Source: Naegleria gruberi (Eukaryota). From it: a stretch of DNA of 64,000 nucleotides. Position numbers and translations under genes: made by a program. Of this stretch, positions 1-27,226 are shown piece after piece; the stretch's first letter is position 1, and every line of letters begins with the position of its first letter. Below the pieces are notes generated by a model that was given only the letters and a program-made list of their open reading frames with translations, had not been told where the DNA came from and did not search any database. The DNA lies in NCBI GenBank assembly GCA_000004985.1, contig GG738850.1. The stretch is one strand, 5' to 3'.

Positions 1-3000
1 TTACCATTGTGAATTGATAGAGATGAGAAGTCACTCTTGTACAATTTGTTTGTTGATAAGGTCAAGAATTGAGTAGTGAATGAAATATCCTTCTCTCCAA
101 CAAACTTTCCTCTCAGAACTAATTTAGAAATATGATTAACAATTATTTCCAATTCCTTAACTTTGAGATCCATTCCTTCTAATTCAGAAAATGTCATGTA
201 ATTATACAGAGAATTGACAATATTAATCAACAAATCGGATACTGTGGATGAAATGGATGCCTCTTCATTTTGTAAAGTTCCCTCAATCAAACTCTTAAAT
301 ATGGTGAAACATTTTTCAAAAATGTAATTATTAATTTCATCATAATTTTCAACAAATGAAGCAAGATCAAATGTTTGAGTAGCTATATAGGATTCAGTCA
401 TTGGCTCATCAGGATTTCTATTGTCATAATTTTCAACAAATGATTCTAGCAAATCTAATCTCATTTGTTGGAATGCAGTGAACATGTCCTCACTCATACT
501 ACAATCAACTTTATAGTAACCTGAAGGACATATACACTTTCCTGAAACATCATCAACTTTACCACCATGTTCACAAACTGTTGTTATTGTTCTTATACTT
601 CTTACAACGGTTATGGAAGAATACAATATGGTAGTAGCTCTTGAAATATAAGTAGTACTGAAAATATACTTGTTTGGATCACCAACTTTCAAAGTCTTGG
701 CATAGATGGTCCAGGAGGCTGTTTTCTTGGTCACCTCAGCTAGAGTCTTTAAAACTGGTAATACCACCTTTACACTTGATTTTTGAATTATAAAGGCACC
801 AGAATTTGTATCAATAATTTTGAAGAATACAGAAACATAAGGGTTTGTCGCAGGTGAACTAGTACTTGGAAGTTTTGTTGAATAGGATTGAATACCTGAA
901 TAGAGAGCCATTTCAACCATTGTCTTGTCATCAATGAAACCATATGTAATTTTAATAGAGTTGGCAGCATTTTGACAATTTGAACACTGAAGGGTAAATA
1001 ATGTATCAAATGCGTAACCACTACTTGGAGAAACAGAGCATGGACATGGTTTTGGAGTAGTTGCAATTGTAAAACTGGTTGAAAATTTTGCTTTTTGAAC
1101 TACTCTTAAATCACTCACTGTAAGACCAACTGTATAAGTACTTCCTTCTGTCAAGGTTGATGGATCAATAACTATAGAGTTTGAAGTGGATGGAGATTTG
1201 GACATTTTGTTGAGAACAGGACTGGTGGAACTTAATAATACACCATTAAGAGTCCATTCTCTTGAAATGTATTGGTCAATATCTGTTCTTTCATTGTTGG
1301 CAGTAATATCCAAATCAATATTAATAATATCTGATTGCTGTAAAATGTAAGCTTTTTGAGGAGATAAGGAAATCAAACTAATTGTTGGTGGTGAAATTCC
1401 CAACCCTGGTATAATGAAATCTACATTAGAATCCACACTTCTTGACCCCTTAACAATTCTAAGACTTATTCTCAAAGTTGGTTTTGGTTCAGTATAAGCA
1501 GACAAGGGAACACTAATGGTAGTACTCTTCAAAGTAGAGTAAGAATTCAAAACATCTAGAATGGATTGACTACAAGAGGATCCAGATGTCAAATCAGAAC
1601 AGGCCCATAACCAAGTTTCTGAATCGATCAGTCCTTCAGGGTCCACAAATGAAGCTGTAATGGAAGCTGAGCTAGAAGTTATCATGGTAGAGTAAACTGA
1701 GAGAGTGAGTGGTTTTGAAATGGTACTAATTGATACTGTTGTATCAGAAGTGGAAGCAGAGTTTACTTTTGAAGTGGCAGAAACTGAGAATGAATAGAAT
1801 TGATCTCCTTTGGTTAAGAACTTTCTTATCAAGAGATTATCATTCGAGTCAACAACCATGTCAACTACTGGCCCACTTGTTTGCTTCCAAACAATTGTCA
1901 TGGATTTATCTTCATAATAACATGATGGGAAACTGATAAGTTGTTTGATTAAAACTGTAGAACTTGAAAAGAAAGTTGAAGGAGAAAGATCAACAGTTGA
2001 AATCTTAGGAAGAGGTGCTGATAATTTTTCAACAGAAAAAACAATTGGATTACTCTGCTTTCCTGAAATTGAACTTTCAACAGTAAGAGAAAATTGATAG
2101 ATACCTGGTAATTTAGTACTATTGGATGATATTTCAAATATTGGAGTATTTGATACACTAATAGAAGATAAGATATTAGAAGGTGATGAAACCACAGACC
2201 AATTATAGTTCAATGGCTTCATATCACCTGAGTATGATCCAGAACCATCGAGTATAATTGAATCACACAAAGAAATTAGGGAAAATGATCTAATTGATGC
2301 AATAGGAATAACTGGAGATTCAGCATTCAAAACTTGTACTGTAGTGTATTCTGACAAACCATTATCGAATATAAGTCTATTCAGTTTCAAATAATCATTT
2401 GGTTTCAAAGTGTAGTCTGAACCTAAAAGTATTGTAAACTCTCCAATTACCTTATTGGTCCAATAACATGATGGAGCAGTTCCCATTTTGCTCAAATAAC
2501 TTGTGTGAATTAACTTTGAACAATCAACACTATTCAAAGAATATGAAGATGGAGCAACAATTATTAATTTGATACCATTTAACATGTCTAAGAATTTTAC
2601 AGGTCCTGCAATCTTTGTAGAACATTCCTTTCCATAATAACCAATTGCACACACATCACATGCAATTCCACCAAAATAACCTGTTTGCTGACTATATTGA
2701 CAATCACACGTTCCATTCACATTACATAATCCTCGTGAGGAACATTTGGATTGAGGAGTACAGAATATTGTACAATCTGGTCCATAATAATTTGCTTTAC
2801 ACTGAGAACAATATTTACCATCCCAAAATCCAGAACATTCACAAACAAAAGTTGAATTACAAGTGCCATGACCATTACAAGTTCTTACAGGATCACAATT
2901 TAGAGTTTTACAACCAGTTTGTACAGAACTATATTCTGGAGTACATGAACCACAATCAATTCCATCCCAGTAACCATCTTGCTGAGAATTCTTACAAACA

Positions 3001-6000
3001 CATGTATCTTTTGCAATGCATGATCCTTGAGAGTTGCAAACTTTTGGATCAGTTGATAAAATGCCACTACATGAAAACTTTTCACAAGTGTCTCCTGAAT
3101 ATTGATCATTACATTTGCATCCACCAATATTTGTAGTTGCATTCAAGAAGCATTGACCTCTTCCGTTACAAACTTGTGCTTCCTTAGAGCTGTGAGAGTA
3201 ACAATACAAATTTTGACAAAGAGTCCCATTGTAAAAAACTTGTCCACCTTGAGAAATAGCACATTGACAAGTGTCAAGTGCAATACATTTACCACGACCA
3301 CCACATACATTTGTATCATTAGCTAAAAGTCCATTACAAATAGGGTATTGACAATTTTCACCACCATATCCTTTTTCACAATCACACTTTCCAGGAGAAG
3401 AACATAAGCCATGACCAGAACAAACACCAGTAGCATTGAAAGCAATACCAAAACAAGAGAATATTTCACACTTGTCACCATTATAATGTAGATTACAGGA
3501 ACAAACATTGGCAGCAGTACACACACCCCTTCCTGAACAAACTGTGGAGTCATTGGAAGGAATTGAATAACAAACAGGATATTGACAAGTATTTCCAGTA
3601 TAATTTTCTTTGCATGTACATNNNNNNNNNNNNNNNNNNNNNNNNNNNNNNNNNNNNNNNNNNNNNNNNNNNNNNNNNNNNNNNNNNNNNNNNNNNNNNN
3701 NNNNNNNNNNNNNNNNNNNNNNNNNNNNNNNNNNNNNNNNNNNNNNNNNNNNNNNNNNNNNNNNNNNNNNNNNNNNNNNNNNNNNNNNNNNNNNNNNNNN
3801 NNNNNNNNNNNNNNNNNNNNNNNNNNNNNNNNNNNNNNNNNNNNNNNNNNNNNNNNNNNNNNNNNNNNNNNNNNNNNNNNNNNNNNNNNNNNNNNNNNNN
3901 NNNNNNNNNNNNNNNNNNNNNNNNNNNNNNNNNNNNNNNNNNNNNNNNNNNNNNNNNNNNNNNNNNNNNNNNNNNNNNNNNNNNNNNNNNNNNNNNNNNN
4001 NNNNNNNNNNNNNNNNNNNNNNNNNNNNNNNNNNNNNNNNNNNNNNNNNNNNNNNNNNNNNNNNNNNNNNNNNNNNNNNNNNNNNNNNNNNNNNNNNNNN
4101 NNNNNNNNNNNNNNNNNNNNNNNNNNNNNNNNNNNNNNNNNNNNNNNNNNNNNNNNNNNNNNNNNNNNNNNNNNNNNNNNNNNNNNNNNNNNNNNNNNNN
4201 NNNNNNNNNNNNNNNNNNNNNNNNNNNNNNNNNNNNNNNNNNNNNNNNNNNNNNNNNNNNNNNNNNNNNNNNNNNNNNNNNNNNNNNNNNNNNNNNNNNN
4301 NNNNNNNNNNNNNNNNNNNNNNNNNNNNNNNNNNNNNNNNNNNNNNNNNNNNNNNNNNNNNNNNNNNNNNNNNNNNNNNNNNNNNNNNNNNNNNNNNNNN
4401 NNNNNNNNNNNNNNNNNNNNNNNNNNNNNNNNNNNNNNNNNNNNNNNNNNNNNNNNNNNNNNNNNNNNNNNNNNNNNNNNNNNNNNNNNNNNNNNNNNNN
4501 NNNNNNNNNNNNNNNNNNNNNNNNNNNNNNNNNNNNNNNNNNNNNNNNNNNNNNNNNNNNNNNNNNNNNNNNNNNNNNNNNNNNNNNNNNNNNNNNNNNN
4601 NNNNNNNNNNNNNNNNNNNNNNNNNNNNNNNNNNNNNNNNNNNNNNNNNNNNNNNNNNNNNNNNNNNNNNNNNNNNNNNNNNNNNNNNNNNNNNNNNNNN
4701 NNNNNNNNNNNNNNNNNNNNNNNNNNNNNNNNNNNNNNNNNNNNNNNNNNNNNNNNNNNNNNNNNNNNNNNNNNNNNNNNNNNNNNNNNNNNNNNNNNNN
4801 NNNNNNNNNNNNNNNNNNNNNNNNNNNNNNNNNNNNNNNNNNNNNNNNNNNNNNNNNNNNNNNNNNNNNNNNNNNNNNNNNNNNNNNNNNNNNNNNNNNN
4901 NNNNNNNNNNNNNNNNNNNNNNNNNNNNNNNNNNNNNNNNNNNNNNNNNNNNNNNNNNNNNNNNNNNNNNNNNNNNNNNNNNNNNNNNNNNNNNNNNNNN
5001 NNNNNNNNNNNNNNNNNNNNNNNNNNNNNNNNNNNNNNNNNNNNNNNNNNNNNNNNNNNNNNNNNNNNNNNNNNNNNNNNNNNNNNNNNNNNNNNNNNNN
5101 NNNNNNNNNNNNNNNNNNNNNNNNNNNNNNNNNNNNNNNNNNNNNNNNNNNNNNNNNNNNNNNNNNNNNNNNNNNNNNNNNNNNNNNNNNNNNNNNNNNN
5201 NNNNNNNNNNNNNNNNNNNNNNNNNNNNNNNNNNNNNNNNNNNNNNNNNNNNNNNNNNNNNNNNNNNNNNNNNNNNNNNNNNNNNNNNNNNNNNNNNNNN
5301 NNNNNNNNNNNNNNNNNNNNNNNNNNNNNNNNNNNNNNNNNNNNNNNNNNNNNNNNNNNNNNNNNNNNNNNNNNNNNNNNNNNNNNNNNNNNNNNNNNNN
5401 NNNNNNNNNNNNNNNNNNNNNNNNNNNNNNNNNNNNNNNNNNNNNNNNNNNNNNNNNNNNNNNNNNNNNNNNNNNNNNNNNNNNNNNNNNNNNNNNNNNN
5501 NNNNNNNNNNNNNNNNNNNNNNNNNNNNNNNNNNNNNNNNNNNNNNNNNNNNNNNNNNNNNNNNNNNNNNNNNNNNNNNNNNNNNNNNNNNNNNNNNNNN
5601 NNNNNNNNNNNNNNNNNNNNNNNNNNNNNNNNNNNNNNNNNNNNNNNNNNNNNNNNNNNNNNNNNNNNNNNNNNNNNNNNNNNNNNNNNNNNNNNNNNNN
5701 NNNNNNNNNNNNNNNNNNNNNNNNNNNNNNNNNNNNNNNNNNNNNNNNNNNNNNNNNNNNNNNNNNNNNNNAAATTGGATTATCATACTCATATATATCA
5801 ACTGAACTCCCTAACATCACAGTCAGAGCTCTCGGATCATGTTCTCTGTCCCTAATATGATTCTTATCAAACGGTATATTTGGGATCTTGACAACTCTAG
5901 TAGAATCTTCAACAATTACAATATCACCATTAGGTAAAAAATCCATAAATTTACAAGGAAATAAAGATTTTGATGGAATAAAGTTGTCGTAAACATATCC

Positions 6001-7974
6001 CATGTTTCTATCTTGCCATGCATCCTCCCCATGTATATAACCAGCAACAGTGGAAACAATACCATCATTTCCTATTTTTCTAATTCTGCACTGATATCCA
6101 TTTGATGTCATTATATGCATCTCCAAAGAAGTTGGAGAAAACCCAATGTACCCATTTACTATCCTTTCTCCTGCCATTTGGAATGAGGATATATCTGAAC
6201 CATCTCCACATTTATCTTTGAAAGGACACACAGTGAAATTTCCCATCACCATTGAAATTTGATCATTTTGAATTTTTCTTATGACAACATAGGAAGTCCA
6301 GCTTTCAAAAATGTACAAGACCTTTTCAATTGGATGAATTGTCATTGACAAAACATTTCCCAAACAAGCATTCACTCTCTTGACACTATTGACACTATAG
6401 TCAGCTATTTCACATCCAACCTTTAATCTCCCTGCAAAGTGATCTATTTTGCCGGACTCTGCATACACAATTCTCAACACGTTTTTTCCATTATATATAC
6501 TGTAAAATACGATATCATTATTTGGAAGTCTGATGGTCTTGGAGCTCGAATCAAAATTTAAATATGCATTTGTAGCTAGACCTCCAATACCTCCATAGTC
6601 AATATTCATTTGAACATAATCATAGATTCCTTTTCCAGCAATTTTTGAAATGGTATTGGTTGTCAAGTCTATTGCTTTAAGCGAATAATCATCCTAACAA
6701 CCATATAAGGATTAATACTAGATAATACTTACTGAAACAAATAGTTCATTTAATTGAAGATTAAACTGCTTTGAACTAATACCAGAATAATTAAAAGGAA
6801 TACCAGTACCATAATAATCACGGGTAGAGCTCCCAATATACATCTCCACCTTTCTGAATGGATCATTAATATCAGCTTTAAGAATTCCCATGTTCATAGA
6901 TCCCAATATAATTGTATTGTTTGAAATACTGAAGGATGCAATGCTATTGCGATCGTTAGCTATAGCAGGATAACATGAAATTAGATCCTTGTCCACATAA
7001 TACATTTTCCCATCTTGTTTTTCGTATTTGAATAACCCATTCTTTGTCACAATAAAGAAACTGCCACTTTTCTCTTCTGCAAAGATAACTTTTGGCTGGT
7101 CATCAAACATATAAAAATTGTTCGCTAAAGCACTATGTCCATAATACACATAATTAGATACTTTGGTATTGGGTGAACTTATTACTGATACATATTCTGA
7201 GGTGCCATTCTTCAATCTAACAACCCCGCCATTACCAGAACTCATCGAATTCATTTGGACCGCCATACCCAAATAATAGTCACCATTACTTGTCCTATAA
7301 ATTGACTTTGGGAACTTTGTCTCACCAAAATCATCTCTATAACTACCAAATGCTCCAAACAAGGTGGAAATTAATCCAGTTCTCTTGTCAATCATTTTTA
7401 CAGAGTGATTATCATAATCACAAATGATAATGCTATCTGTTTGAGAGTCGTAAAACACTTCAGATGGATTGCTCAAACCACTATATATGGCAAGAACATA
7501 ATTTCTGGATCCTTTAGTGCCTGNNNNNNNNNNNNNNNNNNNNNNNNNNNNNNNNNNNNNNNNNNNNNNNNNNNNNNNNNNNNNNNNNNNNNNNNNNNNN
7601 NNNNNNNNNNNNNNNNNNNNNNNNNNNNNNNNNNNNNNNNNNNNNNNNNNNNNNNNNNNNNNNNNNNNNNNNNNNNNNNNNNNNNNNNNNNNNNNNNNNN
7701 NNNNNNNNNNNNNNNNNNNNNNNNNNNNNNNNNNNNNNNNNNNNNNNNNNNNNNNNNNNNNNNNNNNNNNNNNNNNNNNNNNNNNNNNNNNNNNNNNNNN
7801 NNNNNNNNNNNNNNNNNNNNNNNNNNNNNNNNNNNNNNNNNNNNNNNNNNNNNNNNNNNNNNNNNNNNNNNNNNNNNNNNNNNNNNNNNNNNNNNNNNNN
7901 NNNNNNNNNNNNNNNNNNACAAGGTATGCTAAGAAAACCTTATTGTGTTGCGTTGAATTCATTTTTTTAGCCAT
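1..7974 (-). CDS. Giant secreted or adhesion-type protein (gene A), partial at its 3' end. Exon 1 spans 7974-6733 and contains N-gap 7524-7918. A 39-bp intron at 6732-6694 runs GTAAGT...TTAG. The terminal exon spans 6693-1 and continues past the window start, with a frame break across N-gap 3622-5771. Domain order: NHL-like beta-propeller, then at least 9 tenascin-type EGF repeats (~3610-2700), then Ser/Thr-rich REJ/PKD-like modules (~2500-1).
   Basis: The minus-strand ATG is at 7974 (MAKKMNSTQHNK...). NHL-type repeats include GKGIYDYVQMNIDYGGIGG... and GNDGIVSTVAGYIHGEDA. Manual translation of the minus strand from 3610 down shows repeated C-x-C-x-G-Y/W-x-G-x-x-C EGF units, for example CSGRGVCTAANVCSCNLHYNGDKCE. 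The minus-strand frame stays open to position 1 and ends ...LSTNKLYKSDFSSLSIHNG. The donor GTAAGT lies immediately after ...NELFVS, and the reading frame re-opens after TTAG with DDYSLKAIDLTTNTISK. Confidence 0.6.
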
Positions 7975-8246
7975 CTTGCTCCAGTCATGCCTGCTTTGAG
8001 CATTAAGGTTTTCCCTCTCGAATCTACACTGAGCGAAAATGGAAGTATTTGTTTCATTTTGCTTCAGGTATCTTCAGGTATCTTCACTCGCAGAGTTAAA
8101 TTTGCTCAAATTAGGACTAATGAACCGTATATTCTTACAAATTTGGAATGGATGAACCCAACTCACCGCGTGATGTTGTTGGCTTTTGTTGATTGGGTCT
8201 ATTGACGATTAAAGAACCAACCAACACAATACCAAACTGAAAAACA
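7975..8246. promoter_or_regulatory. Short divergent intergenic region (272 bp) between two head-to-head NHL/EGF genes. It is presumably a bidirectional promoter and contains the direct repeat GTATCTTCAG/GTATCTTCAC at 8067-8086.
   Basis: Gene A starts at 7974 on the minus strand and the next gene starts at 8247 on the plus strand. The spacer is AT-rich and has no convincing ORF. Confidence 0.35.
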
Positions 8247-10858
8247 ATGAAACCATTAAGGTATGCTCGCTTAATAGCTGCACTTATTATAGCACTATTG
8301 TTTTTCACTCAATACCATGTTGATTCAGTGCAAGGAGCTACCACCACATGTTTTGGCCTAGCTAGCACCAATGCATTGGTATGTTCAGGTTACGGAAGAT
8401 GTTCAGCCACAGATGTGTGCACATGTAACGAGGGTTACTATGGTAATTCTTGCAACAAGCAATATAGAATTACATCTCGAACAACAGTATTTGGTAAGAA
8501 AGGAGAAATAGGTAGCTATTATAAAGGATTGATTTTTAGTAGTACAGGATATGGTATTTCAGATGTTGAAGGAGATGAATTTCTATACTATATTGATGAA
8601 TCTCGTGTCCGTAAATTGAACATGAACACTGGTATTTCTAGTAGTACTCGTATGGGCGTTCCAGATCCAGACCGTTCTTATGCCATCTCAAACATTAAAT
8701 GTGTGCAAAGAAAAGGGAAAAAATTCTGCTATGCCATTCAAGACATCTCCTCTGTGTCGGTTTTCATATTTGGTCCAGACAGTTCGATTATGTATAACAC
8801 ACCATTCCAATATTCAGTTACAGTTCAATACGATCCGGTTCGTGACTGTCTCTTTTTGTATAGTAGAACAACACTTTACCAACTCACAAACCTGGACAAT
8901 TTTAATGGAACTAACTGGTCAGTGTATATCAAATCAGTACCCACAGATTATAGTTGCTTTACTGTTACTACCAATGGTGATTTGCTTTTTTGTGATTCTA
9001 CTTATAAAAATCTTGTCAAACTCAAACAAGATGGTACCAAAACCACTCTGGCCACTGGAATGAACCATTATAAGGGAATGTACATTTCAAATTATAATGA
9101 AATATTCTGGTATGAAAAGGGATTTATGAAGAAATTTGATGGTACCACTTTCAAGACTGTAATGACTTTAGATTGTTCTGATTATGCAGAGTTTGGATTG
9201 GGAAGAGAAAACAACACATTTTACCAAATAGATAATAATGTGATTGAAAAACTAGTTTATGGATTGACTTGTGTTGATAATAGGTGGAAAGGTGATAATT
9301 GTGATGAAGTTGCTCTGTTTTGCAATTCTGTCCCATTCAATGACTCGAAAGTTTGCTCTGGACATGGTAGTTGTCAAACTGGAGAAGTGTGCAATTGTAA
9401 CTATGGTTATACTGGTACTGACTGCGAGTCACTCATAATTACATGTTTTGGAGCAAGGGCTAGTAATGGAGGTGTTTGTAGTGGTAGGGGAAAATGCATT
9501 GCAAATGACACTTGTGTTTGTAATGATGGGTATTATGGAAATAACTGTCATGTTGACACTTGTTTTAATATTTTAGGAAATAGTTCCAGTGTTTGCAGTG
9601 GTAATGGTTATTGCAGAGGAACAGATAATTGTATTTGTTATGATGGATTTGCAGGCCCACTATGTAATAATACAGTTAGTACAGGAATTACATCATTTAA
9701 AGTTTCAGATTTTAACTTTCCAATGCCTAGAGGAAAGTTTGTTTCAAACGAATCACATTTGATTTATCATGACGAAACAACCCTAGAAGTGCTGGCAATT
9801 TCTTTTCAAACCAAGGCTGTTAGTTTACTAGGTTACTTTACTCAATCAACAGTAGAAGAAATGCGCTATTACAATGGAATAGTCTATTTTATTGATAGTA
9901 CCAAGAGTTTGAGATTTCTTCCAGAGGGAGGATTTACCCAAAAAATTACTGGTTCTATTACTGGTGCTTCCTATTTGAAAACTGCAACAACGTATGGAAC
10001 TTTCACAGGTGAAATTCAAACCTTTCAAGTTTGTTCACAAGGAATTATATTTGTGGAGCAAAATACTGGTAAAATTTTTAAATTGGTCTTTGATTACAAA
10101 ACAGGAGAAACTCAATTTTTTCACATTGCTGGTAAAGGTTATACAGAATCTGGAAAATCATGGAGTTTTAGCAATGGTAATGGAAAGCCGTTAGATGCTA
10201 CACTTGGGTACATTAATTCTCTTCTCATCAATGACAATGGTGATTTATTTATGGTGGATACAACCAATCATGTTATACGTCAGTTTAACCTATTAGGAAC
10301 CTCAACAATTGCGACAACAGCTGGTGTAGGTACATCAAAGGGATATTCTGGAGATGGTAAGAGTGCAAAATCATCCTTATTGAGTTTAAATCTCAATTCC
10401 ACACTATTGCACTACAATGGTGCCTTAATGTTCTTTGATGGAGGAAATAACCTTATAAGAAAGGTACTGAATGGAATCTTGTACGATGTTGCAGGTAGAC
10501 AGACCCTTGGAGGAGCTGCAACAATTGGTTTGGACAATACCAAAACAAGTCTTTTACTCACCAATCTTTTCAAGACTTCTCAAGGAGATATTGTCTTTAA
10601 GGACACGACAGGAAAATACATGGCTTTGGATATTTCTTTGAAATGTGCTGAAGGATTTACTGGAAGTAAGTGTGATGAGCCATTGAAATGTGGTGGAAGA
10701 TCCTTCTTGGATCCAAATGTTTGTTCTAAAAGAGGTCCGTGTCTTTCTACAGGAGTATGTGATTGCCCTTATGGTTGGACTGGAGATAGTTGTGAATTTG
10801 CTATCTGTTTCAATGTTGCTGCTAATGATGCTTCAGTTTGTGGGGAAAGGGATCTTGT
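8247..10858 (+). CDS. Secreted EGF/NHL-repeat protein, truncated at its 3' end by the 50-N gap. It has a signal peptide, two tenascin-type EGF repeats, a beta-propeller-like region, five EGF repeats, an NHL-repeat region, and further EGF repeats.
   Basis: The ATG at 8247 opens MKPLRYARLIAALIIALLFFTQYHVDSVQG, a signal peptide. EGF units include CSGYGRCSATDVCTCNEGYYGNSC and CSGHGSCQTGEVCNCNYGYTGTDC. An NHL-like block reads IAGKGYTESGKSWSFSNGNGKPLDATLGYINSLLINDNGDLFMVDTTNHVIRQFN. The frame is open for 2.6 kb up to the gap. The TQTQ/PKPK continuation in the ORF track is just a translation of the hexamer repeat. Confidence 0.65.
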
Positions 10859-10908
10859 NNNNNNNNNNNNNNNNNNNNNNNNNNNNNNNNNNNNNNNNNN
10901 NNNNNNNN

Positions 10909-11230
10909 AAACCCAAACCCAAACCCAAACCCAAACCCAAACCCAAACCCAAACCCAAACCCAAACCCAAACCCAAACCCAAACCCAAACCCAAACCCAA
11001 ACCCAAACCCAAACCCAAACCCAAACCCAAACCCAAACCCAAACCCAAACCCAAACCCAAACCCAAACCCAAACCCAAACCCAAACCCAAACCCAAACCC
11101 AAACCCAAACCCAAACCCAAACCCAAACCCAAACCCAAACCCAAACCCAAACCCAAACCCAAACCTGACATGGGATCCAAACCCAAACTAAAAATAGAAT
11201 TCTTCTAAACCCAACGTTCAAACCCTAACC
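10909..11230. repeat. Telomere-like hexamer array (AAACCC)n, about 43 perfect copies (10909-11165). G-strand is TTTGGG. It is followed by degenerate copies (AAACCTGA..., AAACCCTAACCC).
   Basis: Perfect tandem AAACCC units are read directly in the sequence. The C-rich strand is on the plus strand. Confidence 0.9.
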
Positions 11231-11680
11231 CAAAATTATAAACTTATTCAAATATCATTAAATTTTATATCATTCGATAGCTAATGATGAGTAGAACAAC
11301 ATGGTATATTTAGTTTTTCAATTTATAAAATATTAACTTTGTAAATAATGTCAGATTAAAATTTCTAAAATGAAACTATAGGAAGAATGATAAGTACAAA
11401 ATCCTTTAATGAGATTATATAGTCTATATCATCATTAACAACATTCATAATCACTTTCATATAAAATTTCAAAAGTTCATGTCTGTAGATATAAAAGTAT
11501 CAAGTGAAAAGGGAAGATGTGAGGTAAAAGAGGTCAACTATAACTTTTGAGTTTCTCATCAAAACATATTGAATCCTGACATGATAATGTTCCATTTGAT
11601 GATTAAACATCGAATATCAAATTTATTTTGACTTTCATATCTAAAGATTTCTTCCCTCAATCACATATTGTCAACTTGTA

Positions 11681-11799
11681 TGAAAAGGTGGAAATCTTGA
11701 TAAAGGACCACCTATTGAAACTTTACCAACATGATGTAGATGATCTATAATGATATAGAATTCAATTTCATGTCCTAATAATCAGAAATGGTACCATGG
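11681..11799 (+). repeat. Copy 1 of a ~115-bp dispersed element 'R' (GAAATCTTGA[T/A]AAAGGACCACCTATTGAAACTTTACCAACAT...). It is about 90% identical to the copy at 14833-14946 and runs into N-gap 11800.
   Basis: Direct comparison of 11681-11799 with 14833-14946. The preceding unique stretch 11340-11680 also shares degenerate blocks with 14950-15400 (CTATAGGAAGA, TCCATTTGATGA, GATTTATTTTAACTTTCATAT). Confidence 0.8.
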
Positions 11800-14946: not shown

Positions 14947-15530
14947 TAGGAAGATAATGGTTGACTTTATAAGGTTGACTTTAAGGATTGACAGGTCAGA
15001 TCAAGTCTATCAAATACATCACTTCAATCAACAAAATATACATGAAAATGCTCCATTTGATGAGTAGAGATAGAATATTTGATTTATTTTAACTTTCATA
15101 TTCATGATTTCATCCCTTTCATACCATCTAGTCAACTATGGACATGGATGAATTTCTGGAAAATGACTACTCTACGAAACATCACCATCATGTTCTACAT
15201 CTCTAATAATATATATGGTTCAGTTTACAGACATTATGGTGAATATTCTATCATTCAGTAAGGTAAAGGGTGAAATTTCAAGGTTGTCTTGGAAGATCAG
15301 GAGGAAATGTTGAATATAGAGAACAACATCCTCAATCTACAAAATACATATCAATCGATTGGAAATCAATAGTAAATCTCGAAAATATAATTTATTTTAT
15401 GTTTTGAAATCTCTCCTTGACCTCTTTTAGTCAATTAAGACAATTAAGGATGACACTATAGGAAAAGTTACCAATCTCATAATAAATGATAATATCGTGT
15501 TCTACATCTCAAATAAAGTGGACTTTCTTC
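14947..15530. repeat. Degenerate satellite-like or subtelomere-like repeats. The internally repeated ~23-mer ATC[A/G]TGTTCTACATCTC[T/A]AATAA occurs at 15186 and 15495, and several blocks are shared with 11340-11680.
   Basis: Self-similarity was found by eye. There is no credible ORF. The 60-aa ORF at 15079-15261 and the EESPLYLRCRTRYYHLL tail at 15477-15530 lie inside these repeats. Confidence 0.55.
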
Positions 15531-17753: not shown

Positions 17754-20543
17754 CCAAGCTTTCTTCAACAGATTTCCCTTTGGTATTTGTTGTGCTCTAT
17801 CAGTCATCCAAATTTGATAGTCCTGATGGTCTAAAGGTACTGTGGTGGTCTGGAGTGAGCATTGATGTTCTTCAAATATTCTATCATATTTCTCTCTTTC
17901 ACATAATTGTCTCAAAATGACTTCATTATTGTTCACCCGCACAGAATAATCCTTTTCATACTCCTTCTTCTTCTTGTTGCTCAACCTTTGTGGTTGACAA
18001 TACATAAAGGTATCTGGTATTACCGTTGAGAGAAATAATATTCTAAGTTTACGGAACAATACTTGAGCCAATAACTTATCTTCTTGTCCTATTTCTATTG
18101 TCGACCTAGGACCTTCAATGGGAGAGACAGCAAAGATATTCAACAATAAATTCTTATTATCTTCAATATCATCACCAAGCTCTTTCACAAATTTGAAGCC
18201 ACTAACTTTAAAGTGCTCTGTGTAGTCTCTGGTGTTGGAGAGAAGTGAATTATAGAAAGTATGTGTATGTCCACCACCCTTGCTGGAACCCTTTATAATG
18301 GTGTCTGCTTCATCAACATGACTACTTTCGAATGCTTGAGTTTCAAATACTTTAACATGACCAACTCTTTCTCGCAAGGAAACAATATGTTTCACCAATA
18401 TGTGAGCATACCATGATTTACCTGGAAACCCATGAACAGCTGCAACATAAACAGCCCAAAATTTGTTACCTGAGTCAAGAATTTGATTATTTGGTTTGTC
18501 ATAATCAATATTATGTAGGAAGTCGCGTAATGACTCCCATAAAACCTTTGTCTTCTCATTTTCGAAATGAGGAGACAATGTATTACTGTTGTCAAGAAGA
18601 ATATTACCTGTGTTGCCTAGAAGAAAGACTCTCACTTCATTCCATTCCTCATCTTCAACTTTGTTCAAATCTTCAAGACCTTTGATACCACAAACACACT
18701 CCCAAAATTCTTCCTTCTTCCTAACACCACATAAAGTTATTCTTAAAACATTTCACAAAGCCGTTCTTTTGCATGAAGGATACATATTATAATGTTGGAT
18801 GCAGGTAATCCAAGGATACAACCAAGATTTAAATTTGTTCTTGGCTTGTGGTTTTTACAACAGATTGGAAAAGAAATGTTGCAAAATGGACACCATGAAT
18901 CTTGTTTCACTCCAGGACAAACAACACCCAAGGCCTTTAAATCCATTGTCAAGAATACATCAATACTACAATGATACGAATCAATGGAAATACCATGTTT
19001 TCTGATTATTTCAATTTCATTCTTGAAATGATCAGCAATATGTGTCAATTCTGATTCGTCTCCCTTCCAGGCAGCCAAAGGAACACACACAACCCGAGAA
19101 TGACCCAACCCAAAACACTTACTGTTAATAACAGTAATGGTTAATGTTGTTAATTTAGAATTTGCAGCATAATCAAGATTTAGGGCAACTATTAAATCTT
19201 TAAAGTTCATGTCATCTTCCTTACACAATGATCGTTTCTTCTTCTTCATCCAACCAATCCACTTTTAATACATAACAACATACGGTAGGAAGAATGGAAT
19301 GGTATATGATGTTTCTATTTTCTCCAATTGATTTAAGTTTCACGTTAAATATATCTGCACACAATACATCTGTTGTCGATTGAGTTTGTTGTAAGGTTCC
19401 TGAGGGAAGTAAATCTTTCACTTTTCCTTCCAATCTGAATTCATCAACTGTGCCTTTAGAAACCAGTCTTCTATTTTTAACTAAGGTTTGTTTTAAGGCT
19501 ATTTCTGTTACCTTATTGGAGTGTGAAGGCTTTCGAACTTTCTTTTTTTTTACCTTTTTTGATTTTGGTTGAGCCAATTCTTTTTCTCTTTTTCTCTTTT
19601 GACTCGCTTCCCACTGTTTATCTTGTATTGAGCTAAGTTCATTATATTCTTTTTGAAACAATTTTTTCTCAGGTTTTTTTCTTGTCTCAGGTTGAATGGG
19701 TGCGGTTAATCCTTCTTCCTCCATACGTCTATTATCTAACAAACCCTTTCTTTTTAAAAGCCCCAAAAAGGAGTACAAATCTCGGAATCCCTCTGCCTTA
19801 CTAATTAAATCATGCCCAACAAGTTTTTGTTTCAAAATCTTCTTTCTTTTAAGGTTGGCACTTGAAGAAACATTTTCCTCATAATTGGTGAATTTGTAAG
19901 ATATTTTGTTTGTGACAATTGAATTATCAAGATTAACAAATCCAAAATGTTCTGAAATATCAATATAATATCTTTTTAATCCGTTTTCCTCAATTACTAT
20001 CCTATCTTTCTTTCCAATTCCATCATCATTGGGTATCTGAGTGGATTTGGAGTATTGTTCTGCAATTCTTTTTAGGAATTGTTGTTCTTTTGTTGGGTTT
20101 TTGGGTTCTTCTGTAGTTGTAGAAATCTCAACATCATTATTTTGGGAGGAATGATGACATGAATTTTGGGAGGAATGATGACATGAATATGTTTGTGGAT
20201 TAGGATAACTCATATTACCATTATTTTGAGAGGAGTAATGACATGAATTTTGAGAGGAGTGATAATATGAGTTAGGATAGATTGGTGAATTGTATGAATT
20301 TTGAAAGAAGGTTGGATGATATGAATTTTGAGAGGAGTGATGACATGAATATGTTTGTGAGTTGTAAAGTGGGACGGTGGAAAATGGTGGTATTATATAG
20401 TCCTGTGAAGCTTGAGGATAATTGTTGGTATGAATGAATGGAGAGTATTGTGAATGGTATTGTTGATGATTTTGGTGTTGGTAATGTGTATCTTCTATTG
20501 ATTCATCCAATGATAAACAATCATGCCAGTCACTTTCTGACAT
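17754..20543 (-). pseudogene. Large minus-strand gene of unknown function, read as three consecutive ORFs separated by two apparent single-nucleotide frameshifts at ~19221-19249 and ~18743-18760. Segments: 20543-19221, 19249-18743, and 18668-17754 running into N-gap. It is either a pseudogene or an assembly indel artefact, and the 3' end lies inside the gap. The N-terminus is Q/H/S/Y-rich and low-complexity with SCHHSSQNS repeats. This is followed by a Lys/Arg-rich block and a Cys/His cluster (H-x3-H ... C-x2-C), and then a region with an HGFPGKSWY motif and an HVDEAD motif.
   Basis: Both junctions keep two frames open across the overlap: ...DWLDEEEETIIV* versus MKKKKRSLCKEDD..., and ...HAKERLCEMF* versus ...NVLRITLCGVRKKEEFWECVCGIKGLEDLNKVEDEEW. 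A 1-nt indel at either junction would fuse them into one ORF of more than 900 aa. No family was recognised. GFPGKS is one residue short of a canonical Walker A motif. Confidence 0.4.
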
Positions 20544-20601
20544 TTCTTTTAAAAATTTGAAAACCGTTACATTTAAAAACTGTTATTTATTATTCAAATT
20601 T

Positions 20602-21285
20602 CTAGAAAAATGTAAATTCATCCTCATCTTCGTATTTAATCTTTGTGTCGTAGCTGAAATGCATTGTTATTTCATTTGATTCCGTATCCATAATAAAAGA
20701 AATACTGTTGACTTCCAATAAATATAGTGTTCTAATGTATGTATCATCTTCCATTTGTGTGGTTGAACTAATTACTTGACGTCCCCAGTTTTCAAAAATG
20801 TCTAACATTGGAAGAATAGATTGAAATCTATACCCAAAACATGGTACCTTGTATTTAATTCCATGTCTATTGATGGTTCTGTCTGAATGGAAAAATTTAG
20901 CACCTTCCATGGCTTCAAATATTACTTGGAAAACCTCAGTTTCTAAACAACCACAGCTAATGTAGTTTCTCTTATGAATGCCACCTAGTTTGAGTAATCT
21001 ATTAACCTTCACACGAGCACACTTGGAAAATAATTGGAAGGATCTAACTACAAATTGTTGTTCTTCATCACAAAGATCACCATAACCATGGGAGAGTGCT
21101 TGGATTTTAGGTAGGCCGTGTTCAATAATAATATCTTTAAAGTAAGTTTCTTCTTTACGTTGTTGTACAAGTTGGGCATTAACAGGTGTAGTGTTTGATG
21201 AAGAGTCAACGTCCATCATAGCCACATCGTCAATGGTACCTTCTTGAATGACAGTGGTGGAAGTATACTTGTATTGAGTGTTCAT
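20602..21285 (-). CDS. Hypothetical 227-aa protein, single exon, intact ORF.
   Basis: ATG at 21285 (MNTQYKYTSTTVIQEG...), TAA stop, moderate codon bias, no recognisable domain. Confidence 0.45.
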   Translation of the reverse strand: MNTQYKYTSTTVIQEGTIDDVAMMDVDSSSNTTPVNAQLVQQRKEETYFKDIIIEHGLPKIQALSHGYGDLCDEEQQFVVRSFQLFSKCARVKVNRLLKLGGIHKRNYISCGCLETEVFQVIFEAMEGAKFFHSDRTINRHGIKYKVPCFGYRFQSILPMLDIFENWGRQVISSTTQMEDDTYIRTLYLLEVNSISFIMDTESNEITMHFSYDTKIKYEDEDEFTFF

Positions 21286-21717
21286 TGTTTAGTTATTGTT
21301 TTTTGTTTTGTTTGTTGGTAGCCAGAGGGTAATGTTGCGAGACATTTTATAGGTTTTTTTTTTGTAAGAAAAATCATCATTTTCCACAGCCTCTCCTTTC
21401 GCAGGCCATTAAAAATGATGGTTGCTAAATTGTAGTGTGATGTAGGTGAGTTGTTATTGTATTTTTTTAAGATTCCTTAAATGAACCTTAATACAGTACT
21501 GACTCCAACTGACAAGAGTAAGTGCTTCCGCTCCTACAAAGAATATTCAATATTACCCACTTTATATTTAATAAATTATACAATATCTTGATAATTATAT
21601 GAACAATACATGATTTTTATTGTCGGAATCATCACTAAATCATGCTACCCATCCAGAAATATCAAAGGGTACATTTCAATATCACTCTATTGTATGAAAG
21701 TGTATAAAACTCACCCA

Positions 21718-24700
21718 AACCCCACCAACCCAAAACCTTCAAAGCGTATCCATCTATTATCCACCATGTGTACCAAACAATACTGACATTAGTTTTAAAT
21801 GGAGTATAACTCAATCAGACGCAGTAAGACCACTAAAAATTGTTACAGATATCAAAGGGACCTCTGTTGCTATACTAAAATTTCCTGATGCAGGATATTA
21901 TACCTATAAATTAACAGTTCAAGGAACAGTTGTGAAAGATCCAACTCTGACCTTTACTGAAACCTGCACTATCAAGACATTTCCAAGAGAACTATCCTTG
22001 AAAGCAAAAATTACAAGTATTTCATATAGAGATGCCATTGTTGGTATAACCAGTGAAGACCCTGATGCTGTACCAGCTGAGAAGGAGGAATGGAAATATT
22101 CATGTTTGACTGGAAATGGTGATGTTTGTGGTGATACTGTTGACACAATGTTGTCCAAAATGAATTCCCAACAATCAGAGATATCATTCCAAAGAACAAT
22201 GTTCAACCAAACTTTTGTTAACACCAACACCAAATTTTACATTTCAATCCAATACTCAAAAGGAATTAGAGTTGCCAAATCACAAGTTATAGTTCAGTTT
22301 TCTAATGCTCCAAATATAATTCCCCCAATTTTAACAAACATTTACAGACCAACTAAAAAACTAAGCCCAGGAGATCGTATCGACATTGTAAATCAGGTAT
22401 CTATTGGACAGAAAAAGGTGGCATGTGCAATTTATGATTCTTGGGGAAAAACTTTCAATATGAATTGGTATCTAGATGGTGAACAACGGGCTCGATGTGA
22501 GAGTATTAGTGCAACTGCAGAAGAAGGGAAAACATATAATTTTGAGTTTAGATTTGTTGATAATAATATAGAATATGTGGATATTACAACAGTGGTAGTG
22601 AATAGAGCTCCATCATGTACTTGTATTGTGACTCCAACGACAGGGTTTGCTATGGATACCATGATTACTATGACATGTCCTAACTGTCAAAATGAAGAAC
22701 AATCTTTAGAGATATCGTTTGGTTTTATGGATTGTAATCGTCCTGTCACATTAAAAAAGGAGGGAATTCATTCCAAACTCCTTTCCCGCTAGGTTGCGAT
22801 CCTGATTTATTCTTGAGTAATGAAGCTCAGGCTTTCATTAAGATAACGGACTTGAATACTGATATAAGCACAACTAAACAGTTTAAAATACAACTACACA
22901 ATCCAGTGGCTGAAACTCTCGCTGACATGTCAAATTTGGTTGACTTGTGGAAAAGAAAGAGAGAGTCACTTCCTGTAGGTGATAGTCGCAGAAATGTTTT
23001 CAGTAGTGCCTATATAAGCAGAGCAGTTAAGGCTATACTGAAAGTTATGGATCCAGCAGCTCAATTAACTAGATCAATAGGAAGTAGAAGACTTAGAACG
23101 TTGGAATGCAATGGACATGGTACATTGATAAACGGAACTTGTGTATGCAATAGTGGGTACTACACAAATGATTGTAAATACAATGCAGCTGACTTGGCAG
23201 CCATTAGAACAATGAAGCAAAACTTGTTCGATGATTTCATTCAAAGTCAACTTGAAAGAAACAGTACTTTTGACCCAATTTCTGAAGCTATCCTTACAAG
23301 CTCTGTCTCTGGTATTGATTCATTCTTGGCGGATTTGAACTATTTGACTAACTCTACTTTTGAGAGTTGTGTTTATTTGTTTGCATCTGTATGGGATGAG
23401 GCAATATCTGATCCAGAGTTGACAATCTCACAAGAAGTTGCACAATCAAGCGTTACCATTTTGGAACGTATTTATCAGTCCTCTTTTAAAACTGTGGCAC
23501 ACAAAACAATTATTGATTCATACTTTAAAAAGATTAGCCAAATTAGATTGAGAACTAATAACATTGGAGAAAAATTATCATTCTCCAATGTTACATTTAC
23601 TGATTCCTTTTCAATGAGAGAACTATCTTCGAGTTTAGATAATACCACCATTGTCTACTCTGATAAACAACCAAATTTACAAGTGAAATTTGCCGAATCA
23701 ATGGATACCAAATATGATCAGCAAATGTTCATATTCTACACTTTCGGTTTAATCCAAGATTTGAGTAGTATTAATCAAACGATTAGTAATATCAGTGGAC
23801 CTGAATATACTAACACGATGATTTCACAATCTGCCGTATTTTTGAAAGTCTACAATCAGAAATCAATTGCTGACTTGAATGATACCGATACCTCAATAGT
23901 GTATCAGATTCCACTTTCTGAAACGCTCCAAAAAACCAACTTCAAGCTTAGAAAATTAGTTCCTTCCACAGAGTACACTTATTCCTGTATCTCACTGGAT
24001 GAAATTGGAGAACAGCTCGACACTAATGTAACTTGCTCCATCTCATTCATTGTTGGAAATGATCAATTAGTACAATGCACATGTTCAGAACCAACCACCG
24101 TTATTGTTGTAAAGAGTTCAAGAATAATTTCAGTAGATGATGGAGTAATATATTGTGATGGAATTCAAAGCTCTGATTTGAAATCTTGTAATGGAAATGG
24201 TAATTGTACTGATAATGAAGTATGTCATTGTAGTCCAGGTTTTAATGGAACCTATTGCGAATTTGAAATTCCAATTAACAATTCAACTATGGATAATTCC
24301 ACAACTAGTGTTCAAAATTCAACCATTGATAATTCAACCACAGATTCAAATTCCACTTTTAACAATACTACAGATCCTGCTAGCAATAATACTATAATTT
24401 CTAATTCAAGTGATATCAATAATAATACCATGCAAAGTAATGCTACTGTTGGAAATAGTACTGTTGAGAATAACTCTACACTTGAGAATAATTCTACCAC
24501 TCTTGACAACTCTACTTTAAATAATTCAACTCTATATAATTCAACTACACTTGAAAATAATTCTACCTTGGATTATAATTCAACTCTAAATAATACCACT
24601 TTAAGTAATTCTACCTTGGAACAATTCTACCATAGAAAATAATTCTACACTTGACAACTCTACTCATGCTGAAAATACTACCTGGTCAAATAATACTCAA

Positions 24701-27226
24701 GTAGAAAACAACACTCTGCATTCAAATGATTCATTGAATTCCAGTAACAATACATCTGAAAATTCATCAATTCCCCAAATTCCATTAGAAATGGATCTTA
24801 TTATTAGCAAATCAGTGGCAGATTTTTGTGATCAAATCACATTCAATGCCATTGTGAAAAACAATAGGTATACTATTAATTTCATTTGGAGAAGCTCTGA
24901 ATCAAACTCATATCTGAAACAATTACTTCAATCAATTAGTACTGATTCTATTTCAATAGAAACTGGATTGTTGGGATCGGGTTCTTACAACATTAGTGTG
25001 AGTATTTCAGAAAGAACCCAACAAGTCACTCAATCCAAGACTATTTCTATAAGGAAAGTTCAACCAAAATTATTCATGGATGACATCACTTACGTTTCTA
25101 TTGGATCTGAAGTTGATGTCATGCCATCAATCACTCTTCCACATTGCTACCCTTATTCCAATTTGGTGTACAAGTATGAAATGAATACAAAGGAAGAATC
25201 TGTGGCAAATATTGACAAGATAGTTTTTGACGAAACTTTGGAAATTAAATGTTCAAAAGGAGGAGAAAGTTGCAATGATATTTCAACTCCAATAACTCCA
25301 ACCTATTCAACCATTCTTCAGGAAGGTGTTTACAACTTTACAGCCATATTCACCAAAGGATCAAGAAGCTCAATCAGTACCATTATTGTTACTGTCCAAA
25401 GTCCAAGCTTACCAAACAATGCATTTGTTTCCACATTATCATTGTCTAACACTGAAGATTTGAATAATGTTGATCCAAACAATGATCTAAAAGTTAGCTT
25501 TAGAACAAGTGAAAAGTTAACCAATCCAAAATACACTTGGACTTCTGACCTTCCTATCAGTGGAAATAGTGCAAGTTATCTCATCATTCCTAAATCATAT
25601 CTGGTAACAGGTGTTCAACATAACATTACTTTAGATATCAAAGATGGATCCAGATATTCCAAGACGACAATCTATTTCATTGTTAATTCACCACCTACTG
25701 TTGGAAGCTTTGCAATCACTCCTCAAGAAGGAAGTGCACTTGAAACTGTATTCACATTAGATGTACAAGAGGGATGGTTAGATTCAAATTTACCACTCAC
25801 TTTCAAATTCTTCTACCTGGATGAATATTCAAATACTTGGATTCCTCTCTCTGAAAGAACAGAGTCTAATGTTTTGAGTGTTTCATTACCTCCTGGTTAT
25901 GGAAATTATTCTACACTTAGAACTAAGGTTCATGTATATGATTCTATGGGTGTATATTCATATAAGGAAAGTTATGCAATTGTTAGAAAGCCAAATATCA
26001 TTTCTGACTCGATGATTTCAACTCTTAATGCTATCAACTCGTCCACTTCATCTCCTTCAGTGCTATCCACTGCCCTGAATGTTATAAGTACAGTTAGTGA
26101 CAAGACGGAAAAAGTTATTGGCATTACTAATAGTTTGGTTTCTAATTACGTAGAGAATGCCAATTTGGAAAATATCAATTCTGAAAAAGCCCTCTCCACA
26201 ATCTCTATCTATTCATATAGTGCATCTTGTTTACCATATTTGCAAGACTCGGTTACATCTGCTCTGATTTCAAAATTAGAAAGTTTTACTGAGCTTATTT
26301 CTGCAAACTCGTTTGATTCATTGGATGAGCAATACTTGGATTCAATCAAATCTACAACTGACAAGTTATATGACAAGGTTTTGTCTAAAACAAAAAGAAG
26401 CTTATCAACCAAGGAATTGATAGCTCTGGAAAATGTCTATGTAAACTTGGCAAGGGCCTATGTCAAGAGTTCCTTACCAGATATGAAAGGAAAATTAATT
26501 ACCTCAAACTCAATTTCAACCTATTCCAGAAAGATCAACACTGCCTCTGCTAAGAGTTCATTAATTACCAGTGAAATTGTAGACTCTAACAATACTATAT
26601 TATCATTAACTTCAAATATTGCTCAAAAACTTTCCCTTTCCTCTTTCACAATAATTGTCAAATCACAAAGTTCTCTTGTGAACAAGATTATTTCCAAAGT
26701 ATTGACCGTCTCCATACCAGAAGTACCAAATGGAATTATTTCCAACTCTCCAATAGGATCCCTCCTCATCAAACATTCCACAGTATCATCAAATAATATT
26801 TCGTGTGTTTGCTTCAACAGCATTTCCAATAGTTTTGAAAAGGATGTTGGTTGTTGTCGATTGACAACAGTTTCCTCTCGTTCCATTTCGTCCACCTCAT
26901 CCATTTACCTCTACAGAACTGCAATATTTGCACTGAGGGATGAAAACCATGGAACAATCATTACTGAAGAATCTATTCCAATCAAACCAAAACCAACAAT
27001 ATCCGTTGGTAGTGGAAGTGGAGATGGAGGAAATCATGTCATTAAACCACCAAAGCAAACAAGAACCAACAATAATAATCTATTTGGATTACTTTCACTT
27101 TTGGCCACTTTGTTTGTGGCAGTGGCCATAAGTGTTGCAGTGATTGTCCTCTGTGTGAGACAAAGAAAGTACAAGGCAATGCAAAATGCTGCTCCTGTTG
27201 ATCTTCCTATGCGTTCCGAGATCTGA
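21718..27226 (+). pseudogene. Gene B, a 5'-truncated paralogue of the REJ/PKD-like C-terminal part of gene A. It is read as three frames (21718-22790, 22738-24645, 24611-27226) because of two apparent 1-nt frameshifts, one at the A6 run 22752-22758 and one near 24610-24625. It consists of Ser/Thr-rich REJ-like modules, an N-glycosylation-rich NST repeat tract, then a single TM helix and a short basic tail, and ends with TGA.
   Basis: Paralogy to gene A: APSCTCIVTPTTGFAMDTMITMTCPNCQNEEQSLEISFGFMD versus PCPCSVSPSSGYAFDTLFTLQCSNCQNAANSIKITYGFID. A second match is RTLECNGHGTLINGTCVCNSGYYTNDCKYN versus TVCEHGGKVDDVSGKCICPSGYYKVDCSMS. After the first shift the alignment to gene A continues in the other frame (NSFQTPFPLG~QSYSTKLPST, AFIKITDLNTDISTTKQFKIQL~VFFKIIDTNSGAFIIQKSSVKVVL). 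The NST repeat continues in a +1 frame after ...SNSTLEQFYHRK*. The C-terminal TM reads LLSLLATLFVAVAISVAVIVLCV. Confidence 0.55.

Follow-up and report, generated by a model that had tools for sequence, protein, structure and literature searches.

The first 27,226 nucleotides of a 64,000-nucleotide stretch of Naegleria gruberi DNA (contig GG738850.1 of assembly GCA_000004985.1; the whole stretch is called the window here) hold three genes for large predicted surface proteins, which we name A (1-7974, minus strand), H (8247-10858, plus strand) and B (21698-27226, plus strand). It is probable that A, H and B all belong to a family of type I surface glycoproteins that has expanded in the Naegleria/Heterolobosea lineage. 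The family plan consists of a variable head, an EGF array, PKD and REJ modules, sometimes an extra EGF, a juxtamembrane stalk of GAIN type, one transmembrane (TM) helix and a short tail. A and H are ordinary members, incomplete in the draft assembly. In gene B, two subfamilies are apparently combined in frame, so that it would be a mosaic rather than a copy of A, and we consider it likely that this gene is a telomere-proximal relic, that is, a 5'-truncated mosaic with two frame-breaking indels.

A search with gene A matched dozens of related sequences, paralogs as well as homologs, from N. gruberi, N. lovaniensis, Acrasis kona, Willaertia and environmental contigs. As regards the type I topology, H and relatives have a signal peptide and B has a C-terminal TM helix. 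A sequence-only reading of this DNA had suggested an undescribed receptor family, which is too strong an expression: A (P0001) and B (D2V2Y6) are already present in GenBank and UniProt, and the class of proteins with REJ and GAIN is known. No description of the Naegleria REJ-GAIN family was found in the literature searched.

Gene B is related to gene A in its proximal part

Gene B is spread over three reading frames (21698-22790, 22789-24639 and 24620-27223; 364, 617 and 868 codons, respectively) without any in-frame stop. It contains one partial and one complete REJ module and no head. The Pfam REJ profile (cut-off 25 bits) gave 48.5 bits for the proximal module, 109.8 bits for the distal one and 119.7 bits for the annotated protein P0247. 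The same profile gave 90.7 bits in gene A, where a K319L-type PKD module was also above its cut-off (31 bits; cut-off 27). The profile searches for REJ and PKD thus confirm the modules that the sequence-only reading had assigned to A, and they find REJ twice in B.

In composition-adjusted BLASTP, the first frame of B was aligned with residues 562-897 of A (24% identity, E 7e-17) and the second frame with residues 931-1185 (27% identity, E 4e-27, EGF included). The former alignment spans a cysteine motif, CxCxVxP...CxNCQN, which reads CTCIVTP...CPNCQN in B (22616-22693) and CPCSVSP...CSNCQN in A (969-1046); that this motif is common to both genes had been recognized earlier. The third frame has no counterpart in the visible part of A. 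Its REJ core shows 39% identity to the N. gruberi paralogs P0041 and P0045 (tblastn), and an exhaustive HMMER search with the distal module against 1.84 billion representatives gave 329 matches at E<1e-3. Thus, the module-by-module alignment of B with the distal part of A, as first proposed, holds for the first ~800 residues and fails for the last ~870, which are of another subfamily. The identity between A and B is just 24-27%; therefore, B is probably an old diverged paralog, and the idea of a degraded copy of A must be abandoned.

One may suspect that the resemblance between A and B merely reflects Ser/Thr-rich low-complexity composition without a REJ/PKD fold, as S/T/N-rich regions swamp word-based searches and saturated the protein searches with B. 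This is next to impossible in view of the composition-adjusted E-values of 7e-17 and 4e-27, the conserved Cys motifs, the REJ scores, which exceed the Pfam gathering threshold in A and at two places in B, and the 329 representatives matching the distal module of B. Similarity by composition only is ruled out by Pfam REJ and composition-adjusted BLASTP.

Close relatives of B have one REJ stretch each and differ in their heads (subtilase, FZ and EGF arrays; elsewhere NHL, C-type lectin and leishmanolysin). Upstream of ~21750 no family similarity was found, and B has no signal peptide, in agreement with the previous statement that it lacks the NHL/EGF head. Its TM helix and short tail (22 aa) were also correctly noticed. 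The mosaic could have arisen as follows: the proximal part of B would be the distal half of an A/P0002-type gene, from the middle of REJ to the end of GAIN without the TM segment; it would have been joined, without loss of frame, to a stretch from a P0041-type gene with the order EGF, linker, REJ, stalk and TM; and two small indels would then have broken the frame.

The annotated model spans two frame breaks

Gene B is annotated on the same scaffold as the protein-coding gene NAEGRDRAFT_63161 (XP_002681276.1; UniProt D2V2Y6; P0247) of 1729 aa. The model starts at ATG 21481 with MNLNTVLTPTDK, which does not form a signal peptide, and removes 21518-21848 as an "intron 1" that includes family-homologous sequence. 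It spans the first frame break with a 29-nt "intron" (22734-22762, GTAATC...GGAG), which has a poor donor and a poor acceptor. Restoration of a single C near 22781 recovers the KLP motif of the family and a 44-residue spacing, and the family HMM gave 106.9 bits to this 1-nt correction versus 97.6 bits to the annotated intron (9.3 bits better). The second break is located at ~24620-24635 (GGAA^CAA) within a tandem NST repeat. The model spans it with a 196-nt "intron" (24410-24605), which is open in frame and has N-x-S/T repeats like both of its flanks; the probability of 65 open codons by chance is ~0.009. We also considered the frame switches as introns, as suggested by "R*V" (AGG TAA GTT), and rejected this because there is no usable GT..AG pair of plausible length. 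No independent copy of the first break was found in a JGI metagenome scan. NAEGRDRAFT_63161 conceals both breaks with implausible patch introns, and the previous description of B as 5'-truncated with two frameshifts is correct for the sequence as given, in which the homology begins in the middle of REJ and credible introns are absent.

An ENA metagenome contig (L001; ERZ929261), positions 1-1071, shares ~900 nt with ~26840-27740 of the window at ~99.9% identity and diverges at both ends. The shared block comprises the final 131 codons of B with the adjacent 3' flank, so that only the 3' end of B is covered. It may represent a second genomic context or strain, or a chimeric contig.

Telomere-type arrays lie between genes H and B

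Matches to the hexamer pattern number 121 in the window versus 0 expected, and two arrays of the hexamer, with 43 and 88 near-perfect copies, lie between H and B (Table 1). TTTGGG is a candidate telomere repeat of N. gruberi (PMC3622300). To judge from their letters, the (CCCAAA)n arrays are of telomere type, being the complement of TTTGGG, which supports the previous claim that B is adjacent to subtelomere-like repeats. Both arrays are in the orientation of a left chromosome end, and each is followed by related units of ~100 nt. To the right of 14.3 kb, there are ~7 kb of ORFs without Pfam matches, then gene B, and then core genes. B is telomere-proximal only if the array at 14308-14831 is terminal. 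At 10690-11221 and 11768-14861, the ORF list has many long entries, for example (TQ)n, (PK)n, (NP)n and (GL)n; these are no genes but six-frame readings of the telomere hexamer and of runs of N.

Relic, live gene or product of scaffolding

Several observations weigh against the picture of a truncated relic mosaic in this family. There are zero nonsense codons in the three frames of B, in 5.5 kb of AT-rich coding sequence; the probability of this is 0.04 at a neutral divergence of K=0.01, which limits the decay to less than ~1%. As no nonsense codon has accumulated, B must have been inactivated very recently unless the breaks are errors in the sequence. A 39-nt intron was inferred in gene A. 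In another frame upstream of B there is a weakly hydrophobic N-terminus (MIFIVGII; ATG near 21611), which may belong to a short-form gene. No parent gene of B was found by HMMER at more than 36% identity, aside from a 143-aa fragment whose cluster contains NAEGRDRAFT_63161, and the mosaic is read from subfamily affinities alone. In the distal membrane-proximal stalk of B, hhalign gave no GAIN signal (probability 1%). With regard to gene A, AlphaFold2 of 5773-6693 (6-row alignment) predicted an all-beta structure with strands in fours at a pLDDT of 35.7, which is unreliable. Gene B may still be under selection, the breaks being draft-assembly errors or real tiny introns. NAEGRDRAFT_63161 would then be a functional two-REJ receptor gene, with breaks due to draft errors or very short or NST-rich introns and with an unmodelled 5' exon for the signal peptide. 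The low decay, the annotation as a protein-coding gene, the location of both breaks in short homopolymer or tandem-repeat contexts prone to miscalls, the apparently real 39-nt intron of A and the MIFIVGII ORF just 5' of B are all consistent with it. On the other hand, the ORF starts in the middle of REJ, the family homology reaches into intron 1 of the model, and the model lacks a signal peptide; the 29-nt intron scores 9.3 bits below the 1-nt correction, and the 196-nt intron is open repeat-coding sequence; and a second REJ stretch was found in none of the examined relatives. A functional B is thus rather unlikely in our judgment, and we prefer the telomere-proximal relic. As for the former designation of B as an inactive duplicate, inactivity is likely but unproven, given zero nonsense codons, and duplication of A does not hold at 24-27% identity.

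The neighbourhood of A/H and B raises a different question, as the physical linkage across the gaps and arrays is uncertain. The two arrays inside the 708-kb scaffold are either separate chromosome ends that were joined or interstitial telomere tracts. In the former case, the neighbourhood would be a scaffolding artefact, in which real chromosome ends were joined by mate pairs via shared subtelomeric repeats, and A/H would be far from B or at another chromosome end. The arrays are perfect, abut N gaps, share the left-end orientation and are each followed by related 100-nt units. In addition, the order to the right of 14.3 kb reads telomere, subtelomere, gene B and core genes including CNOT1, the model of gene A stops at the start of the window, and gene H stops at a gap. 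However, interstitial telomere arrays exist in many genomes, and the scaffold was built from paired reads. We put the artefact at somewhat less than an even chance. A more ambitious proposal can also be made: B would be a live or just-silenced subtelomeric recombinant of two REJ-GAIN subfamilies, and the chromosome ends of Naegleria would shuffle modules of surface receptors. Parasites shuffle var and VSG genes at their chromosome ends, and Naegleria is a free-living bacterivorous amoeba. We regard this proposal as improbable, clearly more so than a functional B. If subtelomeric recombination were true, the in-frame double REJ would have to be regarded as a receptor architecture of a new kind, not as debris.

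The stalk is of GAIN type with a degenerate cleavage site

GAIN is a domain of ~320 residues, in which a helical subdomain A is followed by a beta-sandwich subdomain B that ends in GPS strands with conserved cysteines (PMC3321182). Several relatives have a canonical GPS motif (C..W..C..CxCxH[L/T]T.F) at 20-50 residues before TM segments. An alignment of 14 stalk sequences, headed by B 23176-24144, has four invariant cysteines. The profile of these 14 sequences matched, among solved structures, the GAIN of ADGRG6 over nearly its full length (E 5e-12) and also the GAIN of ADGRF1, CELSR1, ADGRD1, ADGRL3, latrophilin-1 and BAI. A profile of only A/B stalks found no GAIN match in PDB, so that the support comes only via the intermediate relatives. 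The A/B-type stalk was aligned with the canonical-GPS relatives over 247 columns (93% probability, E 2.7e-7), with CTCSEP^TTVIVV of B on CxCxH(L/T)^T of the canonical GPS (^ marks the site). AlphaFold predicted five confident helices and then a partly resolved beta subdomain (pLDDT 60, pTM 0.45). Judged by these comparisons, the stalk at 23176-24120 fits the definition of GAIN, the catalytic His-Leu aside.

At the position of His-Leu^Thr, B has SEP^T, and SEN, TKL and NFE are found in P0002, P0004 and P0016, respectively. More distant relatives keep HLT, HTT, HAT or HLS. Because the His-Leu^Thr site is not conserved, the GAIN of the A/B subfamily is probably structural and not self-cleaving. 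The GPS-like Cys pattern in the proximal module of B is followed by an EGF and the second REJ, not by a TM segment. Among the relatives with a canonical GPS (H-T-T), the predicted protist proteins P0047, P0035 and P0005 from JGI contigs combine Lectin_C/EGF/REJ with several TM segments; P0047 also has a sub-threshold RGS domain, and the layout is like that of adhesion GPCRs or polycystins.

Genes A and H are incomplete family members

The NHL propeller that had been proposed for gene A receives partial support. In Pfam, the proximal part of A gave only sub-threshold matches to NHL (0.016) and TEN_NHL (1.4e-3), and the AlphaFold model is unusable. We built a blade HMM from canonical NHL repeats of family members, with 50 shuffles as control; the spliced N-terminal region of A gave 29.7 bits versus at most 4.5 in the shuffles, with only 2-3 clear blades. 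Because the score exceeds that of the shuffled controls, the predicted NHL-type blades of A are real but divergent. Splicing of the 39-nt intron restores the blade motif LFVSDDYSLKAIDLTTNTISKIAGKG.

The gap at 3622-5771 in gene A (2150 N) hides ~716 codons, and the N gaps of A amount to 2.5 kb in total. From 3620 to 1 the frame is open (1206 codons without a stop). In the EGF array, 51 Cys per 333 aa correspond to one partial module, five six-Cys modules of tenascin/teneurin type and two eight-Cys laminin-like modules. One further EGF follows the REJ region, giving ~9 visible modules, roughly as many as the at least nine tenascin-type repeats counted before. The open frame is cut at the start of the window and the TM region lies beyond it, consistent with the earlier remark that the 3' end of A is outside. 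Gene A is deposited in GenBank as "predicted protein, partial [Naegleria gruberi]" (P0001), which is 99% identical to the open frame 3620 to 1. P0001 ends at ...SLSIHN, which is position ~6 of the window; therefore, the sequence suggests that A is truncated at or very near the end of the scaffold or a contig, and not just by the edge of the window. Moreover, P0001 joins 6732 directly to 3387 across the assembly gap and skips real coding sequence, so that this model is a patchwork.

Gene H contains, in order, a signal-peptide-like N-terminus, an EGF, a propeller-like region, three EGFs, NHL-type blades and more EGFs. It gave 58.3 bits on the blade HMM versus at most 2.9 in shuffles, again with only 2-3 clear blades. 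No REJ part is visible in 8247-10858. The long "(TQ)n" tail listed on the ORF of H is the telomere-type hexamer read in frame. The EGFs of H and A are 41% identical, and their propeller regions have no significant similarity. The two genes had been called an intact head-to-head pair: they are indeed head-to-head and 272 bp apart, but they are not intact, as A has N gaps and no 3' end and H runs into a gap.

Features and surroundings

The features of A, H, B and the region between them are collected in Table 1.

Table 1. Positions of the features in the window, from left to right
Feature	Position	Strand	Remarks
Gene A, distal EGF and helical first half of GAIN-like stalk	3..575	-	EGF 501-575; stalk 3-500
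Gene A, PKD/REJ ectodomain	576..2615	-	K319L-type PKD 2067-2270; best Pfam REJ stretch 714-1616
Gene A, EGF array	2616..3620	-	EGF_2 1.8e-15, EGF_Teneurin 1e-9 (Pfam); Cys map
Gene A, second NHL-like segment	5772..6693	-	TEN_NHL E 1.4e-3 (below cut-off); blade YQCRIRKIGNDGIVST; ends at N gap 3622-5771
Gene A, predicted intron	6694..6732	-	39 nt, phase 0; GTAAGT...GTTGTTAG; inferred from sequence
Gene A, exon with divergent NHL-type blades	6733..7523	-	e.g. IIICDYDNHSVKMIDKRTGLISTLFG; Pfam NHL E 0.016 (below cut-off); blade HMM domain 11.7 bits
Gene A, start	7919..7974	-	ATG at 7974, MAKKMNSTQHNKVFLAYL, then N gap 7524-7918 (395 N)
A/H divergent intergenic region	7975..8246		272 bp; ORF coordinates
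Gene H	8247..10858	+	EGF_Teneurin 1.4e-20 (Pfam); ends at 50-N gap 10859
Perfect (AAACCC)43 array	10909..11165	+	directly after 50-N gap; C-rich strand on +
Subtelomere-like units D4 and D3	11579..11794	+	second copies 15040-15137 (73%) and 14834-14944 (90%), in other order
(AAACCC)88 array	14308..14831	+	directly after 2508-N gap; same orientation
Minus-strand ORF cluster without Pfam match	15477..21285	-	between telomere-type array and gene B; N gap 15532-17753 inside
Gene B, proximal partial REJ module	21698..22781	+	REJ 48.5 bits; begins mid-domain (A aa 562); no signal peptide
Gene B, frame break 1	22734..22790	+	best reading: 1-nt deletion near 22781 (AAACTCC^TTT)
Gene B, EGF and GAIN-like stalk	23107..24120	+	EGF 23107-23175; stalk 23176-24120; GPS-like end 23980-24111
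Gene B, second EGF and N-x-S/T-rich linker	24154..24784	+	EGF 24154-24258; linker 24259-24784, holds frame break 2
Gene B, distal PKD/REJ module and membrane-proximal stalk	24785..27079	+	Pfam REJ 25157-26050, 109.8 bits; P0041/P0045 subfamily type
Gene B, TM helix, tail and stop	27080..27226	+	TM 27080-27157; 22-aa basic cytoplasmic tail 27158-27223

The window is AT-rich (GC ~33%) and has the standard genetic code; it contains six N runs (3622-5771, 7524-7918, 10859-10908, 11800-14307, 15532-17753 and 63561-63610) and is therefore part of a gapped draft assembly. The minus-strand cluster at 15477-21285 consists of ORFs of 227, 440, 168 and >305 aa and includes a tandem repeat of 24 nt (20139-20350), which encodes SCHHSSQNS-like units; for the cluster, both a subtelomeric gene and a mobile element are conceivable. 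The region 28379-63741 has ordinary core genes for a TPR protein, a kinesin motor, Ank/LRR proteins, CNOT1 (44464-50376, Pfam Not1 2e-130) and DUF4116, and no further member of the REJ-GAIN family. The LRR gene at 58073-59689 (LRR_6 3e-91) shows a very regular DNA periodicity of 72 nt, with 15 copies of 82-90% identity at 58440-59747. An Rfam scan of the window was empty, and an NCBIfam search gave nothing useful.

Implications

The family proteins probably act as ectodomains in adhesion or mechanosensing. Binding to a ligand or surface would be the task of the head and the EGFs, and the REJ/PKD array would be an extensible stalk. The short tail would imply signalling via partners or pure adhesion. 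A function in cell-cell recognition, as the sequence-only reading imagined, is pure inference. GAIN domains were already reported in protists, namely Dictyostelium and Tetrahymena (PMC3321182). The present family shows that Heterolobosea (Discoba) have a sizeable modular gene family with REJ and GAIN ectodomains, which are characteristic of polycystin-1, egg-jelly receptors of sperm and adhesion GPCRs, and it extends the early distribution of GAIN among eukaryotes. The A/B subfamily should offer natural variants of GAIN, predicted to be non-cleaving, for comparison. In addition, two GenBank models turn out to be patchworks, A across an assembly gap and B with introns invented over frame breaks, and the locus provides a concrete case in which a putatively decaying surface-receptor gene is adjacent to TTTGGG, the telomere repeat proposed for N. 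gruberi. These findings do not change the current understanding in a major way. The genes had been catalogued before, though not characterised, and belong to the REJ-GAIN class.

Comparison with known systems

The earlier remark that the genes are reminiscent of teneurins and polycystin-REJ proteins is right for the plan of polycystin and suREJ1 and wrong for teneurins, to which only generic EGF and NHL profiles point. Teneurins share with the family the EGF repeats of tenascin/teneurin type and an NHL-type propeller-like region, and the Pfam profiles EGF_TEN, EGF_Teneurin, EGF_Tenascin and TEN_NHL do match. However, EGF_TEN and TEN_NHL remain below the curated cut-offs in A and B, and no YD-shell, RHS, TTR or toxin domain was matched by Pfam in the visible pieces scanned, with 2.5 kb of A hidden in N gaps. 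Teneurins have a type II topology, their EGF repeats precede NHL, and they carry a YD shell and a toxin-like C-terminus; here the topology is opposite, and NHL before EGF is the reverse of the teneurin order, as had been pointed out before. REJ and GAIN are absent from teneurins and tenascins. That A, H and B are teneurin- or tenascin-type adhesion molecules is thus highly improbable.

In its plan the family is closest to polycystin-1 and to the sea urchin receptor for egg jelly, suREJ1/SpREJ1. The latter has a large type I ectodomain with EGF, REJ and a juxtamembrane GPS, some SpREJs having one TM segment (PMC1934368). SpREJ1 differs from A and B in its C-type lectin domains and single EGF, in contrast to the NHL-type blades and long EGF array of A; A and B differ from it in their degenerate GPS, the absence of PLAT (tail of 22 aa in B) and their origin from a heterolobosean amoeba instead of an animal. 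Polycystin-1 shares the order of PKD, REJ and GAIN/GPS next to the membrane. In the PKD1 family, the GPS region immediately precedes the first TM segment, PLAT/LH2 follows TM1, and there are up to 11 TM segments (PMC1934368). PKD1 has 11 TM segments, PLAT, a TRP-like channel part and a cleaved HL^T, whereas the A/B type is single-pass with a short tail and no catalytic His. In B, no PLAT was matched by Pfam, and a single hydrophobic segment and the 22-aa tail are present. The GAIN of adhesion GPCRs (latrophilin, BAI3 and ADGRG6; PMC3321182) resembles the family stalk in its helical and then beta subdomains and in the four GPS cysteines. Unlike adhesion GPCRs, A and B have no 7TM domain and do not conserve the autoproteolysis triad; B, P0002 and P0004 have one TM segment each, and no 7TM domain was found after their GAIN.

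Comparisons can also be made within the family itself. P0002 (NAEGRDRAFT_74099), P0041 (XP_002683347), P0102 (NAEGRDRAFT_52311) and homologs of N. lovaniensis and N. fowleri have the same plan with one REJ each and with heads of subtilase, FZ or EGF only. P0041, which among named relatives comes closest to the distal module of B, is annotated as a "basal body protein" in N. gruberi, though its architecture is that of a secreted EGF-REJ-TM protein. P0041 and P0045 are the guide to the distal module of B, with 39% identity over the REJ core. P0002, with its EGF-PKD-REJ-stalk-TM plan and 32% identity, is the best full-length guide to gene A.

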